Assembly (NCBI GenBank): GCA_041664205.1
Contig: JBAYLF010000002.1
Coordinates: forward strand, 29,690 to 93,689
DNA: 64,000 nt
Origin: Minisyncoccota bacterium
GTDB taxonomy: Bacteria > Patescibacteriota > Minisyncoccia > Phycocordibacterales > JBAYLF01
Reading direction: 5' to 3'
Positions 3,146-41,370 of this stretch are shown piece by piece. The notes under the pieces are model-generated. The model saw nothing but the letters and a program-made list of their open reading frames with translations, was not told the DNA's origin and did not search any database. The translations under genes were made by a program, and so were the position numbers. Numbering within the stretch: the first letter of the stretch is position 1; each line of letters opens with the position of its first letter.

Positions 3146-4405
3146 TTATTTATCTTTCTTTTTTAAAAAAAATTTGAACTGGCCTAGTATTTTTTTGTAT
3201 ATTTCTACGCATTTTTGAGCCGCGTTTTTCCATGATATCGTTTTAACTTCATTCAACGAGTTACTTTTTAGTGTGGATGATAAGGATTCATTTTTTAGCA
3301 CAGATACAATTTTATTAGTTAACTCGTCTGTATCCCAAAAATCAACTTTTAAAGCATGATTTACAACTTCAGATACTCCTGACTGTTTGGAAACGATAAC
3401 AGGCGTGCCGTGTTGCATTGCTTCTAATGCTGTTAATCCAAAAGGTTCAGAAACAGAAGGCATAATAAAAAGATCTGCATTTTTATACAAACTGTTTAAT
3501 TCTTCATCACGTAAAAAACCTGAAAAAAGAACTCGATCCGAAATGCCGAGTTGCGCCGTCTGTCTAATGATCTGATTTTGCATATCACCGCTTCCAGCAA
3601 CGATAAAAAATGTGTTCGGGCAAAATTCAAGCACTTTTTTAGCAGATTTTAAGAAGTAGTCTGGACCTTTTTGAATAGTAATACGTCCTACAAAAATAAC
3701 AATCTTGCCTCCGTTGGTTTTTATTATTCTGAAAAAATCACTTTTATTTTGATCTTTCTGAGTTTCTTCTTTGTTTTCTATGCCGTTATGCACGACTTGG
3801 ATTTTTTCGGGTGGTATTCCATATTTTGATATTATTACATCCTTTGTAAAATTACTTACGGCAATTATTGCGTCTGCATACTCCATACCTTGCTTTTCAA
3901 GTAAGTAGATCTCATTATTTATACCTGTTCCTCCCGTTCGATCGAATTCTGTCGAGTGAATATGAACTATTAAGGGCTTACCTGAAATTTTCTTTGCTTC
4001 GATTCCCGCTCCAAAAGAAAGCCAATCATGAGCGTGAATAATGTTGAAGTTTTCTTCTTTTGCTATTTCCCTAGCTCTTAATGCATAAAGTTTAACGGCG
4101 TCTATTAAATCCATTCCATAATCGCCAAAATTACCTCTTTTTTTTAAAAAATCATCTTCTGTTAAATATGGCGAGATAAGCGAGTCGATGATTTTGTAAT
4201 TAACTAGATGTGAATCGGCAAAATGCAACTTTACCGGAGAATTCTTAATGTCGATTTTTTTAGGAAGAACAAAGATGATTTCAGCATTTTCTCCAACTAT
4301 AGCCTTTGTAAGTCCTAAACATGCAACACCTAAACCCCCACTATTAAATGGAGGAAATTCCCAACCGAACATTAAAACTCTGATTCTTTCATCCCCAGAA
4401 CCCAT
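3146..4405 (-). CDS. Glycosyltransferase, GT4/GT5 glycogen-(alpha-glucan)-synthase-like
   Basis: 419 aa. Has an N-terminal FPPFNSGGLGVA (KxGGL-like) motif and a C-terminal GT-B fold EX7E-like region (EPFGLTALEAM). Confidence 0.7.
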   Translation of the reverse strand: MGSGDERIRVLMFGWEFPPFNSGGLGVACLGLTKAIVGENAEIIFVLPKKIDIKNSPVKLHFADSHLVNYKIIDSLISPYLTEDDFLKKRGNFGDYGMDLIDAVKLYALRAREIAKEENFNIIHAHDWLSFGAGIEAKKISGKPLIVHIHSTEFDRTGGTGINNEIYLLEKQGMEYADAIIAVSNFTKDVIISKYGIPPEKIQVVHNGIENKEETQKDQNKSDFFRIIKTNGGKIVIFVGRITIQKGPDYFLKSAKKVLEFCPNTFFIVAGSGDMQNQIIRQTAQLGISDRVLFSGFLRDEELNSLYKNADLFIMPSVSEPFGLTALEAMQHGTPVIVSKQSGVSEVVNHALKVDFWDTDELTNKIVSVLKNESLSSTLKSNSLNEVKTISWKNAAQKCVEIYKKILGQFKFFLKKKDK

Positions 4406-35819: not shown

Positions 35820-37310
35820 ATGACCCAAGAACCACAAGATAAATCAAATGGGGACGGAGGAGGATCGCTCTTACAACTCGCGGCTATAGTTGAAGAATCT
35901 CACGACGCCATCATAGGTGAAACACTTGAAGGCATCATCACTAGTTGGAATGGTGGCGCAACGAAGATGTTTGGTTATTCTGCAGAGGAAGCGATAGGAA
36001 AATCAATCTCTATTTTGATCCCTTTAGAAATGAAAGATGAGGCGTTATTACTGTTAAATAAAGTTGCCGCGGGAGAAGTGATTGCCGACCATGATTCAGT
36101 AAGATCACGAAAAGATGGAACAAAGATTAATGTTGCGATATCTGTTTCTCCTGTCCACACAAAAGATGGTGTAATAATCGGCGCTTCGGTTGTTGAACGC
36201 GACATAACACTGCGTAAAAAATCTGAAGAATCAATGCGTCAGATTCAACTAATTGTAGAAAACTCACACGACGCAATTATTGGTAAAACACTTGAAGGCA
36301 TCATCACTAGTTGGAATGGTGGCGCAACGAAGATGTTTGGTTATTCTCCTGACGAAGTAATTGGAAAACCAATGACAAATCTATTTCCAGCAGAACTTAA
36401 GGATGAATTACCAAAATTACTTGAAAAGGTAAAACAGGGAGAAGTGATTGCTGATTATGATTCAATTTGGTTACGAAAAGATAATTCTCGCGCTGATGTG
36501 GAATTTTCAATCTCACCCGTTCATGCTGAAGATGGCACAATTATTGGTGCTTCTCTTGTTGGTAGAGATATTACAGAACGTAAAAAAAACGAAAAAGAAA
36601 TTAAAGAGCTGAACGAAGTTCGTAATAAATTCATAACCATTATTTCCCATCAATTAAGAACCCCCCTCACGGCCGTAAATTGGAATCTCGAATCAGTATT
36701 AAGTGGTAAATTTGGCAAACTAGAAGATACTGTGAACAAATTTTTACAAATCACCTATAAATCAAGCATTGAAATTACTAATCGTATTAATGATCTGCTT
36801 ACAGCAATGGATATTGAAGAAGGACGCGTAGTATTTCAAAAAGAAGAAGTTGCTCTCGATAGTATAGTCGCAGCAGTTATAAATGAAATGATGAAGAGGA
36901 GTGAAGCAAAAAATATTTCATGGCAATACGCCGCACCTGAGAAAGATCTTCCTGTTATTGAGGGTGATGGTGAAAAAATCCGAACAATTGTTAATAAACT
37001 AATAGAAAATGCGGTTACTTATACTAAAGATAATGGCAAAATTATTATCAAACTTGAAATGCGTGAAGATATGATCCATTTTGAAATCAATGATACTGGT
37101 GTCGGTATTCCTACACCAGAACAACATCGTTTATTTACTCGTTTTTTCCGAGCATCAAACGCTTCAGTTATGCAGCCGGATTCATTCGGACTAGGTCTAT
37201 TTATAACCAAAAGCTTTATTGAGCAACATGGTGGAAAAATCGGATTTGAAAGTAAAGAAGGAGAAGGAAGTATATTCTGGTTTGAGATACCAATAAAATC
37301 TACTCATTAA
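35820..37310 (+). CDS. Sensor histidine kinase with two tandem PAS domains (HisKA + HATPase_c)
   Basis: 496 aa. Two near-identical PAS blocks (EESHDAIIGETLEGIITSWNGGATKMFGYS...). H-box ISHQLRTPL. N/G1/G2 boxes (ENAVTYT, DTGVGIP, GLGL). Confidence 0.85.
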   Translation: MTQEPQDKSNGDGGGSLLQLAAIVEESHDAIIGETLEGIITSWNGGATKMFGYSAEEAIGKSISILIPLEMKDEALLLLNKVAAGEVIADHDSVRSRKDGTKINVAISVSPVHTKDGVIIGASVVERDITLRKKSEESMRQIQLIVENSHDAIIGKTLEGIITSWNGGATKMFGYSPDEVIGKPMTNLFPAELKDELPKLLEKVKQGEVIADYDSIWLRKDNSRADVEFSISPVHAEDGTIIGASLVGRDITERKKNEKEIKELNEVRNKFITIISHQLRTPLTAVNWNLESVLSGKFGKLEDTVNKFLQITYKSSIEITNRINDLLTAMDIEEGRVVFQKEEVALDSIVAAVINEMMKRSEAKNISWQYAAPEKDLPVIEGDGEKIRTIVNKLIENAVTYTKDNGKIIIKLEMREDMIHFEINDTGVGIPTPEQHRLFTRFFRASNASVMQPDSFGLGLFITKSFIEQHGGKIGFESKEGEGSIFWFEIPIKSTH

Positions 37311-37352
37311 TAAATTAAATTAATACAACGTAACTTATTCTAGATGTCAATA

Positions 37353-37519
37353 GCTGGGGAACAGGGATTCTCTCCTTACAGGAGCTGTACACCCTTCGTA
37401 TCGTGCTCGCAAAGCTCCGCGCGATATACTCAGGGTTTTCGAATCCCTGACGGAAGCAAAATTATTTGCTTCCTTTCCCACAGCACTACGCTGCGCTTCG
37501 TGCTGGGGAACAGGGATTC
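37353..37519. repeat. 18-bp direct repeat gctggggaacagggattc (37353-37370 and 37502-37519); the second copy is the 3' end of tRNA-Gln
   Basis: Exact duplication of the tRNA-Gln T-loop 3' half plus acceptor 3' strand. The 131-bp interval contains tRNA-arm-like hairpins (cagggttttcgaatccctg; ggaagcaaaattatttgcttcc). Confidence 0.7.
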
Positions 37520-37573
37520 GAACCCCAATTAACGGCTTCAAAGGCCGCTGTCCTACCTTTAGACGATTCCCCA
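37503..37573 (-). tRNA. tRNA-Gln (anticodon UUG); CCA not encoded
   Basis: Minus-strand sequence TGGGGAATCGTCTAAAGGTAGGACAGCGGCCTTTGAAGCCGTTAATTGGGGTTCGAATCCCTGTTCCCCAG folds as a cloverleaf with U1-A72, G73 and anticodon loop CTTTGAA. It closely resembles E. coli tRNA-Gln. Confidence 0.8.
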
Positions 37574-37577
37574 ATAT

Positions 37578-38630
37578 TTATTTATCTTGCCCCAACAATT
37601 TGATTAACGCAAGCTCCAAAGGAAGTTCTGGCAAATACGACTTCCCTACGTTATCATAAGCGTTCAAAAACTCTAACAAAGTCCCAGAATTTATATTCAG
37701 ATCTTTGCGCTGGCTCAACTCTTTAAATAATTCAGCATCTTCTTCAGAAAAATCGCTTAGCATATTAACCTCATTTGGAACAAATCGAAGCATCAGAAGC
37801 GCACGCAATTTCTTGAGAATTAGTTTTAAATATATCTTCATATCGATATCGTTTTCGGAAGCGGAACGAATTGCTTTGAGTCCTTTCTCAAGATCCTTTT
37901 CAGTGAGTGAAATAATAATGTTATTGACCAAAGTGCTCGCTGGGATTCCTGTTATTTTTTCTACATCGCTTGCTGTTATCTTTTTACCTTGTATTCCTGA
38001 AATAACTTTTTGCAAAACTCCCTGTGCGTCGCGAAAAGATCCTTCACCTAAAAGCGCAATGAGATCTGCGCCTGCAGGCTCAAGCTCAAATTCCTCTTCT
38101 TTTGCGTTTTTCAGTATTAAACTTTTTAATAATTTCTGGCCCGGCTTCTTAAAAGTAAAATGCTGACAGCGAGAAATGACCGTGTCCGGAAGCTTGTGAA
38201 CTTCTGTTGTGGCTAAAATAAAAACGGCGTGTGAAGGTGGTTCTTCCAAAGTTTTTAAAAGTGCGTTGAATGCTTCTTTTGTAAGCATGTGAACTTCATC
38301 AACAATATATACTTTGTATTTTGATTCGTAAGGAAGAGTGCTCACTGAATCGCGAATTTCGCGAATGTCATCAATTCCTCTATTCGATGCGGCATCAATT
38401 TCGTAGAGGTCGTGTTCTTTTGTACCGATCTCATCTGCAAAAATTCTAGCGATCGAGGTCTTGCCAGTTCCACGAGATCCAGCAAAAAGATATGCGTGAG
38501 AAATTGCATCATTTTTTATTGAGCCTTTTAGAGCATCAACAACATGGTCTTGCCCTAATACATCTTTAAATTTATGAGGACGATATTTGCGGTAAAGCGC
38601 TGTGTGGTTTTCTTGGTCTTTATCTTTCAT
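37578..38630 (-). CDS. dnaX: DNA polymerase III subunit gamma/tau (short form)
   Basis: 350 aa with Walker A GSRGTGKTS, DEVHML and the SRC motif (ISRCQHF). Confidence 0.8.
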   Translation of the reverse strand: MKDKDQENHTALYRKYRPHKFKDVLGQDHVVDALKGSIKNDAISHAYLFAGSRGTGKTSIARIFADEIGTKEHDLYEIDAASNRGIDDIREIRDSVSTLPYESKYKVYIVDEVHMLTKEAFNALLKTLEEPPSHAVFILATTEVHKLPDTVISRCQHFTFKKPGQKLLKSLILKNAKEEEFELEPAGADLIALLGEGSFRDAQGVLQKVISGIQGKKITASDVEKITGIPASTLVNNIIISLTEKDLEKGLKAIRSASENDIDMKIYLKLILKKLRALLMLRFVPNEVNMLSDFSEEDAELFKELSQRKDLNINSGTLLEFLNAYDNVGKSYLPELPLELALIKLLGQDK

Positions 38631-39265
38631 GTTGTGTCTATTATATCAAATAATTGGATATCGTATATAAAAAAATAAACACGGGGTTTAATCCGTGTTT
38701 TTTGTTTTTGCTGGCGGAGCAGATTGATTACTCAATTGCTCCGCCAGCTTTCATTTTTCTACTAATCTGTTTCTTAGTATATGTGAACACCCCAAACTGA
38801 ATTAACGGGCACATATTTTTTAAGAAATCAGAAAGAATCGTCATTGGTACCTTTGCTTTACGAGCCCATGTTCGTCATCTTTCGATAACATTCCAGAAAA
38901 ATTGGTTAGACCTTTCCAGTATTGGGTTCTGCGTGAATGTTCCTTTCTAAGACCGTTCAGGCCTTATTCTGTGTTGCGAGTCTCTCAATTATTGTGTTTC
39001 CGGCGATTGTATTGGCGTTGGTATTGTCTAGCCCTGTAGCTCCTCCAGTTTCCCCCATGATGGGTTCGCTTTCGCATTCTGGCGCTTACGCGGGTTCTGT
39101 TAGGAAAAATCACTCCTTCTTATTGGGTCTGCTGACCCTGTTGTGTTTCGCGAAGAACAAAATTACTCTTACATAGTAGCAGATTAATTATTTTTGTCAA
39201 GCGTTTTTATGGCAAACTTCATTTTAAATGTTAAATATCATAAAATATCCTTATTTTTAGGTATA

Positions 39266-40975: not shown

Positions 40976-41370
40976 TGTCATTCCCGCCTGCCCGCCATGC
41001 AAGGCAAAGCGTTGCAGGCAGGCGAAGGCGGGAATCCAGTATAATCCTCACATGAACAAAAATTATTATGTTTATATATTAGCAAGTAAAAAGAATGGGA
41101 CTTTATATATAGGGGTTACAAATGATTTAGTACGCAGAATTTACGAACATAAAAACGGTTTAATTGAAGGATTTACTAAAAAATACAATATAAAAAATCT
41201 GGTTTATTATGAAGAAACCAATGATATAAACAGTGCCTTAAGTAGAGAAAAAAGTTTAAAAAAATGGAACAGAGAATGGAAACTAAAACTTATTGAGTTA
41301 AATAATCCGGAGTGGAATGATTTGAGTTTAGATTTATAAAACTGGATTCCCGCCTGCGCGGGAATGACAG
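40976..41370. mobile_element. Candidate full-length element: GIY-YIG nuclease gene bracketed by the same GC-rich palindromic termini as the 74-bp miniature repeats
   Basis: Left end tgtcattcccgcc...gaaggcgggaatccag (40976-41039, expanded/degenerate). The GIY-YIG ORF is at 41052-41339. Right end ctggattcccgcctgcgcgggaatgacag (41342-41370), 2 bp after the stop codon. Confidence 0.55.
41052..41339 (+). CDS. GIY-YIG nuclease family protein
   Basis: 95 aa, YYVYILASKKNGTLYIGVTNDLVRRIYEHKNG (GIY-YIG core, YhbQ-like). Confidence 0.8.
   Translation: MNKNYYVYILASKKNGTLYIGVTNDLVRRIYEHKNGLIEGFTKKYNIKNLVYYEETNDINSALSREKSLKKWNREWKLKLIELNNPEWNDLSLDL

Follow-up and report, generated by a model that had tools for sequence, protein, structure and literature searches.

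The tRNA-Gln locus and its repeated 3' end

The window, a 64-kilobase (kb) stretch of a contig (JBAYLF010000002.1) from a Minisyncoccota bacterium, a candidate-phyla organism of the Paceibacteria/Taylorbacteria type, carries on its minus strand a gene for a glutamine transfer RNA, tRNA-Gln(UUG), and directly after it, at 37353-37501, a conserved, tRNA-Gln-derived structured element. The tRNA gene had been placed at 37503-37573 (minus strand) by the first-pass annotation; the Rfam tRNA model returned this same extent, and ARAGORN gave 37502-37573. A dnaX-like open reading frame (ORF; 37578-38630) has its stop codon ending 5 nucleotides (nt) upstream of the tRNA, and dnaX followed by tRNA-Gln is an arrangement widely conserved in Paceibacteria. 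Two ORFs, 37344-37532 (plus strand, 62 amino acids (aa)) and 37347-37574 (minus strand, 75 aa), both overlap the tRNA and the structured element, and their dismissal as artefacts in the first-pass annotation is reasonable.

The 3' end of the tRNA gene is present twice. The 18-mer GCTGGGGAACAGGGATTC, written on the plus strand, occurs exactly two times in the window, at 37353-37370 and 37502-37519, and no further copy was found in the 64 kb with 3 mismatches allowed; the chance expectation is 0.02, and two copies were seen in 0 of 100 shuffles. The repeat comprises tRNA positions 57-73 and one extra base, C74, at 37502. Both copies have the same orientation and lie 149 nt apart from start to start, leaving an interval of 131 nt (37371-37501). 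The exact 18-base-pair (bp) duplicate at a distance of 131 bp is thus confirmed as originally described, as is the richness of the interval in guanine and cytosine (GC), which make up 51% of it against 34% of the window. No terminal inverted repeats were found at the ends of the 131-nt insert, and short-word BLAST found no other copies of the element in the window.

The gene setting of the tRNA is core housekeeping. Nearby are dus, clpB, a sortase gene and a PAS histidine kinase gene (converging from the other side than dnaX), and a Pfam scan of 29 window ORFs, consisting of the 9 nearest the element and 20 further ones that included all integrase-sized ORFs but one, returned ATP synthase, glycosyltransferases, SerRS, DprA, ParB, MiaA, ClpB, Dus, sortase and similar families. 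Integrase, recombinase, transposase and reverse-transcriptase domains were all absent from these 29 ORFs.

Anatomy of the element

The interval contains a feature that is missing from the first-pass annotation, namely the reverse complement of the tRNA 3' third, present as CAGGGATTCGAA at 37438-37449 and GCTGTGGGAA at 37475-37484 with a 22-nt hairpin between them. Together these blocks are antisense to tRNA positions 54-74, the hairpin (P2) interrupting them at 65/66. The two hairpins pointed out earlier do exist, at 37431-37449 and 37452-37473. Read along the minus strand, the order is the tRNA with copy 1 of the repeat, a 17-nt leader, the acceptor antisense, P2, GU, the T-stem/T-loop antisense, GAAA, P4 (46 nt), GUACA, P5 and copy 2. 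The features are as follows, L162 and L184 being contigs of relatives described below.

37503-37573, minus strand: tRNA-Gln(UUG), complete cloverleaf, no encoded CCA (ARAGORN; Rfam RF00005, 60.6 bits)
37502-37519, minus strand: proximal sense copy (copy 1), tRNA positions 57-74, GAAUCCCUGUUCCCCAGC, exact repeat
37485-37501, minus strand: leader, or P0, ACGAAGCGCAGCGUAGU, a small hairpin with a GC-GNA-GC tip (GNA triloop), from alignment A2, motif search and folds
37475-37484, minus strand: antisense to the acceptor 3' strand plus G73 and C74 (5' strand of P1), GCUGUGGGAA, one bulged U; host-matched equivalents in L162 and L184
37452-37473, minus strand: P2 hairpin, 9-bp stem and UAAU loop, placed where the acceptor and T-stem 3' strands abut (tRNA 65/66); 5 of 9 pairs changed on both sides in relatives
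37438-37449, minus strand: antisense to the T-loop and T-stem 3' strand (tRNA 54-65), CAGGGAUUCGAA, 12 of 12 complementary; the first 9 nt are the 5' strand of P3
37391-37436, minus strand: P4, a long imperfect hairpin whose base covaries and whose distal part is variable (helix 3, 4 of 8 pairs changed on both sides)
37371-37385, minus strand: P5 hairpin, GCUCC-UGUAA-GGAGA, UGUAA loop invariant in 4 of 4 copies (helix 4, 100% paired, 3 of 5 pairs changed on both sides)
37353-37370, minus strand: distal sense copy (copy 2) of tRNA positions 57-74; P3 and P1 take their 3' strands from it, or else, if the alternative fold forms, it becomes the 3' third of the cloverleaf

The acceptor antisense GCUGUGGGAA pairs with tRNA positions 66-74. 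In predicted folds a single uninterrupted 3' strand, identical to tRNA 57-74, carries P1 (7 bp plus 2) and P3 (9 bp) as a stack, and the fold z-score is -4.5 for the element alone and -6.9 for the element together with the tRNA.

Conservation in related genomes

The same arrangement is present in three Paceibacteria contigs of one genus (L162, L184 and L187), whose DnaX proteins are 85-89% identical to one another and 65-67% identical to that of the window:

L162: interval of 141 nt; exact 15-nt repeat of its own tRNA 3' end, TCCAAGTCCGGCAGC; intact
L184: interval of 136 nt; exact 18-nt repeat of its own tRNA 3' end, GAGTCCCTGGCCGGCAGC; intact
L187: core only; repeat TCCAAGTCCGGCAGC; damaged and fused to a tRNA-Gln remnant

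The repeats of these three differ from that of the window at 5-7 positions, yet each matches its own tRNA. In L162 and L187 an insertion of 14 nt after GAU splits an otherwise identical 18-nt repeat, and the boundaries are therefore positions 57 (left) and 74 (right) in every copy. The antisense segments follow each host tRNA as well; at the unpaired T-loop position 59 the three hosts differ (A, U or G), and the corresponding antisense base changes with them (U, A or C, respectively). The leader motif AAGCGNAGCGUA is present again in L162 and, with one mismatch, in L184.

When folded singly, the intact copies, three in number, all gave the same helices, P0-P5. RNAalifold on alignment A2 (4 sequences) returned 28 pairs in P2, P3, the base of P4 and P5, half of which (14 of 28) show changes on both sides, and pair counting on the same alignment found 94% of cells paired. 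The observed value was reached by 0 of 500 shuffles on any measure, whether percentage paired, covarying pairs, covarying cells or covariation score, and sliding the partners by 1-3 columns left 30-47% paired with 1-4 covarying pairs. The changes are easily followed in P5: the window and L184 have GCUCC-UGUAA-GGAGA, L187 has GAACC-UGUAA-GGUUC and L162 has GAACA-UGUAA-UGUUC. Like the P5 loop, the bases GU, GAAR, AC and GA at the junctions do not vary. The intact copies have a GC content of 50-57% against 34-39% for their loci, like tRNAs, and the disrupted copy of L187 has 40%. The element thus shows, in an alignment of only 4 sequences, the compensatory changes beyond controls that are the general mark of a conserved structured non-coding RNA (ncRNA). 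It has no credible match to any family of Rfam 15, which includes self-cleaving ribozymes, group I and II introns, Y RNA and tmRNA and in which tRNAs alone were matched (gathering threshold on the whole window; E <= 10 on the element region, L162 and L170); the covariance search of the interval proposed in the first-pass annotation thus gave nothing besides tRNA at E <= 10, and no group I intron match was obtained for the element.

These results bear on the first interpretation offered for the repeat, by which the two copies are attL and attR, the attachment (att) sites of a tyrosine-integrase island that entered the T-loop of tRNA-Gln and was later almost wholly deleted. Integrases that target tRNA genes classically have an identity block of this kind, a direct repeat that starts in the T-loop and extends slightly beyond the 3' end of the tRNA, and here 18 of 18 positions of the tRNA 3' segment are repeated on both sides of the insert; in addition, a pseudo-tRNA in L170 has a T-arm with its 5' half from one tRNA-Gln type and its 3' half from another, compatible with a crossover in the T-loop. 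However, no recombinase domain was detected in the 29 scanned ORFs, the setting is one of housekeeping genes, there is no third repeat copy in 64 kb, and in three independent genomes the repeats stand a mere 131-141 bp apart, with no cargo between them. An internal antisense of the repeat serves no purpose in att sites. Nor does the insert resemble foreign, non-conserved DNA: many relatives lack it, but a homologous one occupies this position in three other genomes, and its structure is kept, with covariation, between hosts whose DnaX proteins share 65-67% identity. A duplication carried by relatives within a conserved covarying structure is the outcome that the first-pass annotation had itself named as contrary to integration, and an att footprint is considered very improbable.

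Comparison with relatives had been suggested as a means of finding an empty site, and its outcome was divided: a plain tRNA-Gln followed by unrelated sequence stands at about a dozen related dnaX-tRNA-Gln loci, genus-mates L170 and L186 included, whereas L162, L184 and L187 hold the homologous covarying element in place of an empty site. The closest DnaX relative among 5.8 billion proteins has 68% identity, and as no relative above this value is present in the databases searched, there is no strain-level empty-site comparison; the one exact match was the window's own contig, a 218-kb metagenome contig in ENA (ERZ27249449, k141_993241). The covariance model R1, built from A2, detected no further members in about 1.3 Mb, made up of 192 non-viral loci (about 1 Mb) and 35 viral loci from a core-motif scan. 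The element had no match in phage records by blastn in distant mode, and three motif scans of viral contigs (10, 35 and 0 motif matches) yielded none; the 10 leader-motif matches have no tRNA upstream, and 0 of the 35 core-motif matches fit the covariance model.

Origin of the element and the question of mobility

The element is likely to have originated as a tandem duplicate of tRNA-Gln that was remodelled and is now under selection. Descent from a second tRNA-Gln copy is suggested because the locus has a history of tandem duplication, chimeras and decay and because real tRNA-Gln genes can be aligned to the covariance model, their anticodon arm falling on P2 and their T-stem on P3. The alternative raised in the first-pass annotation, of a remnant of a second tRNA or a tRNA-derived small RNA, therefore holds in part: the segment order and the decayed tandem tRNA-Gln genes of relatives agree with it, but the element is not decaying and receives no tRNA call.

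A stricter version, in which the element is simply a downstream second tRNA-Gln in decay that has lost its function and most of its sequence, is improbable. Decaying copies do exist at these loci, such as the L170 pseudo-tRNA (14.6 bits), a type-A remnant in L187 and 5' fragments of 25 nt in L188 and 15 nt in L165, and the succession of acceptor strand, hairpin, T-stem strand and then T-stem plus acceptor 3' strands in the element fits a tRNA. Decay would nevertheless have to accommodate an 18/18 match with the live tRNA, kept in every one of three lineages that have differing tRNAs, compensatory hairpin changes with an invariant loop, and a GC content 15-18 points above background, an excess lacking in the truly damaged L187 copy. 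The segment beside the T-stem strand is, moreover, the reverse complement of the T-loop and not a copy of it (in L162, AAUCGAA vs UUCGAUU). ARAGORN and the Rfam tRNA model call one tRNA only in 37200-37700, even at E <= 10, so that an intact second tandem tRNA was discarded. A unit of 149 nt that was simply duplicated in tandem was also discarded, since nothing resembling a tRNA stands in the 72 nt ahead of the distal copy.

Several partial duplications of tRNA-Gln were recorded in the relatives. Two types of tRNA-Gln(UUG), with anticodon stems GCAGC and UCGCC, stand in tandem in L170 (2812-2879), L187 (2945-3056) and L165 (2636-2650), in either order and with one of them decayed, and the tRNA of L184 is a mosaic of both types. 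In L188 (also L189 and L190) the exact 25-nt 5' end of tRNA-Gln, TATTGCGGGATCGTCTAATGGTAGG, is found at 2675-2699 and 2824-2848, the first of these 149 nt upstream of the intact gene; this first copy continues into TTCCCGA and the 3'-flank-like TTTGTTC...GTGAAG and looks like an internally deleted first member of a tandem tRNA-Gln pair.

Mobility offers another account, in which a miniature non-autonomous element inserts between positions 56 and 57 in the tRNA-Gln T-loop and carries a replacement for 57-74, so that the gene stays intact; the internal antisense would be a target-recognition guide, and a host or trans-acting enzyme would do the chemistry. This account draws on the patchy presence within one genus, on repeat boundaries fixed at 57 and 74 in all copies, on antisense (54-74) that covers the putative insertion site and on a locus rich in partial tRNA-Gln duplications. 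The native flank (CAAGTTTCAGAATTC...TTTTTT) stands after the distal copy in L162 and L184, with a near-identical flank after the plain tRNA-Gln of L188, and the new DNA therefore lies upstream of the original 3' end. Element divergence is also out of step with host divergence, the L184 element having 62% identity to that of L162 and 59% to that of the window although the L184 host is much closer to L162. On the other side, the element is present as a single copy in 64 kb, none was found elsewhere by the covariance model in about 1 Mb of non-viral loci, nothing was found in the viral contigs or phage records searched, it has no terminal inverted repeats, and no transposase, integrase or reverse transcriptase lies nearby in the scanned ORFs. 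The antisense and both sense copies match each host tRNA, meaning that three segments would have to re-adapt per host, and the high GC content and conserved junction bases indicate selection on a folded RNA. Mobility is accordingly regarded as an unlikely explanation, if one to be taken seriously.

Specific mobile systems were also considered and set aside. A miniature inverted-repeat transposable element (MITE) or other miniature transposon derived from an insertion sequence does not agree with the lack of terminal inverted repeats on the 131-nt insert and its one copy in 64 kb; a casposon-like target duplication of 14-15 bp was dropped with neither terminal inverted repeats nor Cas1 present; a TnpB omega-RNA with a 3' guide or an IS110 bridge RNA was dropped, such a gene standing beside none of the elements; and a retroviral-type primer-binding site does not fit an antisense that is split and leaves CCA uncovered, with no reverse transcriptase. 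In L168 an IS110-type transposase ORF (3983-4029; Pfam Transposase_20, weak) lies about 1.4 kb downstream of dnaX, which is followed there by rplU and not by tRNA-Gln.

Two predicted alternative folds and a possible role in tRNA-Gln maturation

The element is most likely transcribed, as the 3' trailer of tRNA-Gln. Four segments of such a transcript could take part in two exclusive sets of pairings: the 5' acceptor and T-stem strands of the tRNA (segment 0), its own 3' third (segment 1), the antisense split by P2 (segment 2) and the second sense copy (segment 3). In fold X, segment 0 would pair with segment 1 to give the normal tRNA and segment 2 with segment 3 to give a closed element, with a P1-P3 stack mimicking the acceptor/T-arm helix. 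In fold Y, segment 2 would pair with segment 1 in a long leader-capped hairpin and segment 0 with segment 3, such that the distal copy would complete the cloverleaf and about 150 nt would be held in its T-loop. The minimum-free-energy fold of the tRNA plus element is fold Y in all three intact copies, in which it is predicted to be better than fold X by 13-19 kcal/mol; for the acceptor 5' strand the predicted probability of pairing is 0.94-0.97 with the distal copy and 0.000 with the proximal one. In a transcript lacking the distal copy, the prediction is that the antisense would unfold the tRNA, by a margin of 11-18 kcal/mol. The antisense is better matched to the proximal copy, with which it has extra pairing at U54-C56, and that helix stacks on the leader stem.

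In the interpretation favoured here, held with moderate confidence, the element is a selected structured RNA that would act in cis on tRNA-Gln through exchange between these folds. Such an exchange would govern how, or how much, mature tRNA-Gln leaves the dnaX-tRNA-Gln transcript, and P4, P5 and the conserved junction bases would form a module for binding or for tertiary contacts. A three-way agreement at position 59, like the identity of the sense copies, is expected if the antisense must pair with both copies, in which case the element would be a two-state trailer RNA. Confidence in the anatomy and conservation of the element is much higher than in the proposed mechanism.

A number of points weigh against this interpretation. 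Four copies are known, of which three come from one genus, and the structure was derived from and tested on the same sequences. Gene conversion could yield the exact identity of both sense copies without any function, and could give the same pattern at position 59. The covariation of the hairpins is equally compatible with a single-stranded-DNA structure, and G-U vs A-C counts of 2 vs 2 identify no strand. The element is patchily distributed among related loci, as described above, and its divergence in L184 does not follow that of the hosts; the genes downstream of it differ between loci, and no ligand, partner or regulated downstream gene is evident. As a tRNA mimic the P1-P3 stack is poor because it has 16-18 bp and not the 12 bp that tRNA-processing enzymes measure, and it has no elbow. 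Folding during transcription together with fast end-processing would favour the ordinary tRNA fold.

The predicted ground state also suggests a different outcome for the same transcript. Were tRNA-Gln made from the 5' two-thirds of the gene and the distal copy, the roughly 150 nt between them, consisting of the exon mimic, the guide-like antisense, P4 and P5, would be a T-loop intervening sequence (IVS) that is excised and rejoined or left nicked; this model, resting on the calculated folds, is distinctly unlikely. If true, it would be a class of bacterial tRNA intron or IVS without known counterpart, and such a T-loop element could spread or persist by always bringing a spare 3' exon. Archaeal-type bulge-helix-bulge junctions were not seen by eye, with at most 3 bp between the junction flanks and no dedicated search made, and a hammerhead-like core, also sought by eye, was rejected, as the CUGA...GAA near P4 lacks G8 and L162 lacks GAAA. 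A gene for archease, a cofactor of the RtcB ligase, lies two genes upstream of dnaX in some genus-mates (L171, L172 and L185; 1-351).

A last explanation is that of a DNA-level signal, either a quasi-palindrome or a single-strand hairpin for recombination, replication or repair, in which the tRNA 3' third would be one arm and its inverted copy the other. A long imperfect hairpin of roughly 35 bp is formed by the proximal copy, the leader and the antisense; its tip is GC-GNA-GC, and mini-hairpins of that type are noted for exceptional stability in DNA. L187 resembles L162 minus the exact palindrome centre, deleted between two GTC triplets, which is a typical fate of DNA palindromes. No enzyme gene is associated with the element, however, and it always follows the tRNA directly in the same orientation, that of transcription. 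A three-helix junction and unpaired junction bases that are conserved would be more usual in a folded RNA. Each inverted arm has 1-2 defects and the direct repeats have none, the reverse of what would be expected of hairpin-templated correction. A DNA-level signal is thus quite improbable, and a structured trailer RNA is preferred.

Other observations at dnaX-tRNA-Gln loci

About 40-90 nt upstream of tRNA-Gln, L162, L184, L170, L186 and L165 share a conserved string, TTCTGGATTTTT...CTATAAGCTA, that may be a dedicated promoter, in which case tRNA-Gln needs no read-through from dnaX in that genus. The intact tRNA-Gln of L187 is embraced by a 21-nt inverted repeat (2859-2879 and 2936-2956; 95% complementary) that prolongs the acceptor stem by 14 bp into both flanks (TTTTCGAATAAAGC and GCTTTGTTCGAAAA), and shorter versions are apparent by eye in L166 and L165. 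In the Taylorbacteria contig L001 the roughly 180 nt after tRNA-Gln (4157-4340) are GC-rich and hold two T-arm-like strings (GGAGGTTCGATTGG and GGAGGTTCGATCC); the sequence of this segment is unrelated to the element and has no match to model R1. In L003 (2489-2530) the acceptor end of tRNA-Gln finishes in 8 nt, CCCCGCAG, that are found again some 35 nt further downstream, a repeat too short to tell from chance.

A gene-free gap of about 500 nt (38672-39200, minus strand) separates a 97-aa ORF from dnaX in the window and may hold an unrecognised ncRNA. It has a promoter-like TTGACA...TACTAT site, found by eye, two terminator-like hairpins (38677-38745) and, at 38950-39150, a core rich in GC and A; its fold z-score is -3.96, no ORF in it exceeds 79 aa, and its Rfam matches are all below the gathering score. 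Comparable uncalled gaps of 420-1100 nt occur in the dus-dnaX interval of L165, L166, L170, L184 and L187 and upstream of dnaX in L162. Many bacteria carry the RNA of the signal recognition particle upstream of dnaX. Small stand-alone GIY-YIG domain genes (88-95 aa) are also found close to dnaX/tRNA-Gln, at 41052-41339 (plus strand) in the window and at 2538-2804 in L187.

Significance and comparison with known systems

No description of an element of this kind was found in the literature, the sole related work being on group I introns in the tRNAs of Patescibacteria (PMC13011429). The element is most likely a tRNA-derived structured RNA and has no Rfam family, with an outside chance of being something categorically new, for instance a self-restoring insertion or a T-loop intervening sequence. 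The genomes of candidate-phyla bacteria are tiny but retain unusual RNA insertions, and the design seen here is compact: behind a tRNA stand antisense to its 3' third and a second, spare copy of that third, both of which stay in register while the tRNA evolves. A maturation switch, if true, would be a rare instance in which a tRNA governs its own release by strand exchange, and a T-loop intervening sequence or guide-bearing mini-element, if true, would bear on the origin of tRNA introns and split tRNAs. In practice, island-finding tools routinely score repeats of tRNA 3' ends as att sites, and this family of elements would therefore be a systematic false positive.

The likeness to tRNA-targeting integrative elements with att sites of the T-loop class lies in the direct repeat from the T-loop to past the 3' end, with the intact tRNA on one side and the displaced 3' fragment on the other. 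Unlike these, the element has neither integrase nor cargo, and its 131-nt covarying interior is conserved across genera and holds antisense of the repeat. The Patescibacteria group I introns come from the same phylum and are likewise extra structured RNA in or beside tRNA genes; they lie in the tRNA anticodon loop, are detectable with Rfam and entail no exon duplication (PMC13011429), whereas the element lies outside the anticodon loop and has no group I match. The likeness to the non-canonical tRNA introns and split tRNAs of archaea (e.g. at T-loop positions 56/57), and to rRNA intervening sequences removed by RNase III, lies in the predicted ground state of the element, in which about 150 nt, mostly one long helix, would sit in the T-loop. 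Its host is a bacterium, however, no bulge-helix-bulge is seen by eye, and the 'intron' would hold a full copy of the 3' exon, so that splicing is not needed.

Two further comparisons concern the proposed mode of action. tRNA-like RNAs made from longer transcripts, such as the YrlA Y RNAs (PMC4201824), mascRNA and viral tRNA-like structures, imitate an acceptor/T-arm coaxial stack without being tRNAs, as the predicted P1-P3 stack would, at a place where processing enzymes could set ends; the 3' strand of the element differs in being an exact copy of the neighbouring tRNA, its predicted stack has 16-18 bp instead of 12, and it has neither a T-loop/D-loop elbow nor an Rfam match. Attenuators and riboswitch expression platforms, with their 1:2, 2:3 and 3:4 pairings, resemble it in the use of four segments and two exclusive pairings, the second sense copy corresponding to an 'anti-antisense'. 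The element would differ from them in switching the body of a tRNA and not a terminator, and no ligand, leader peptide or regulated downstream gene is evident.

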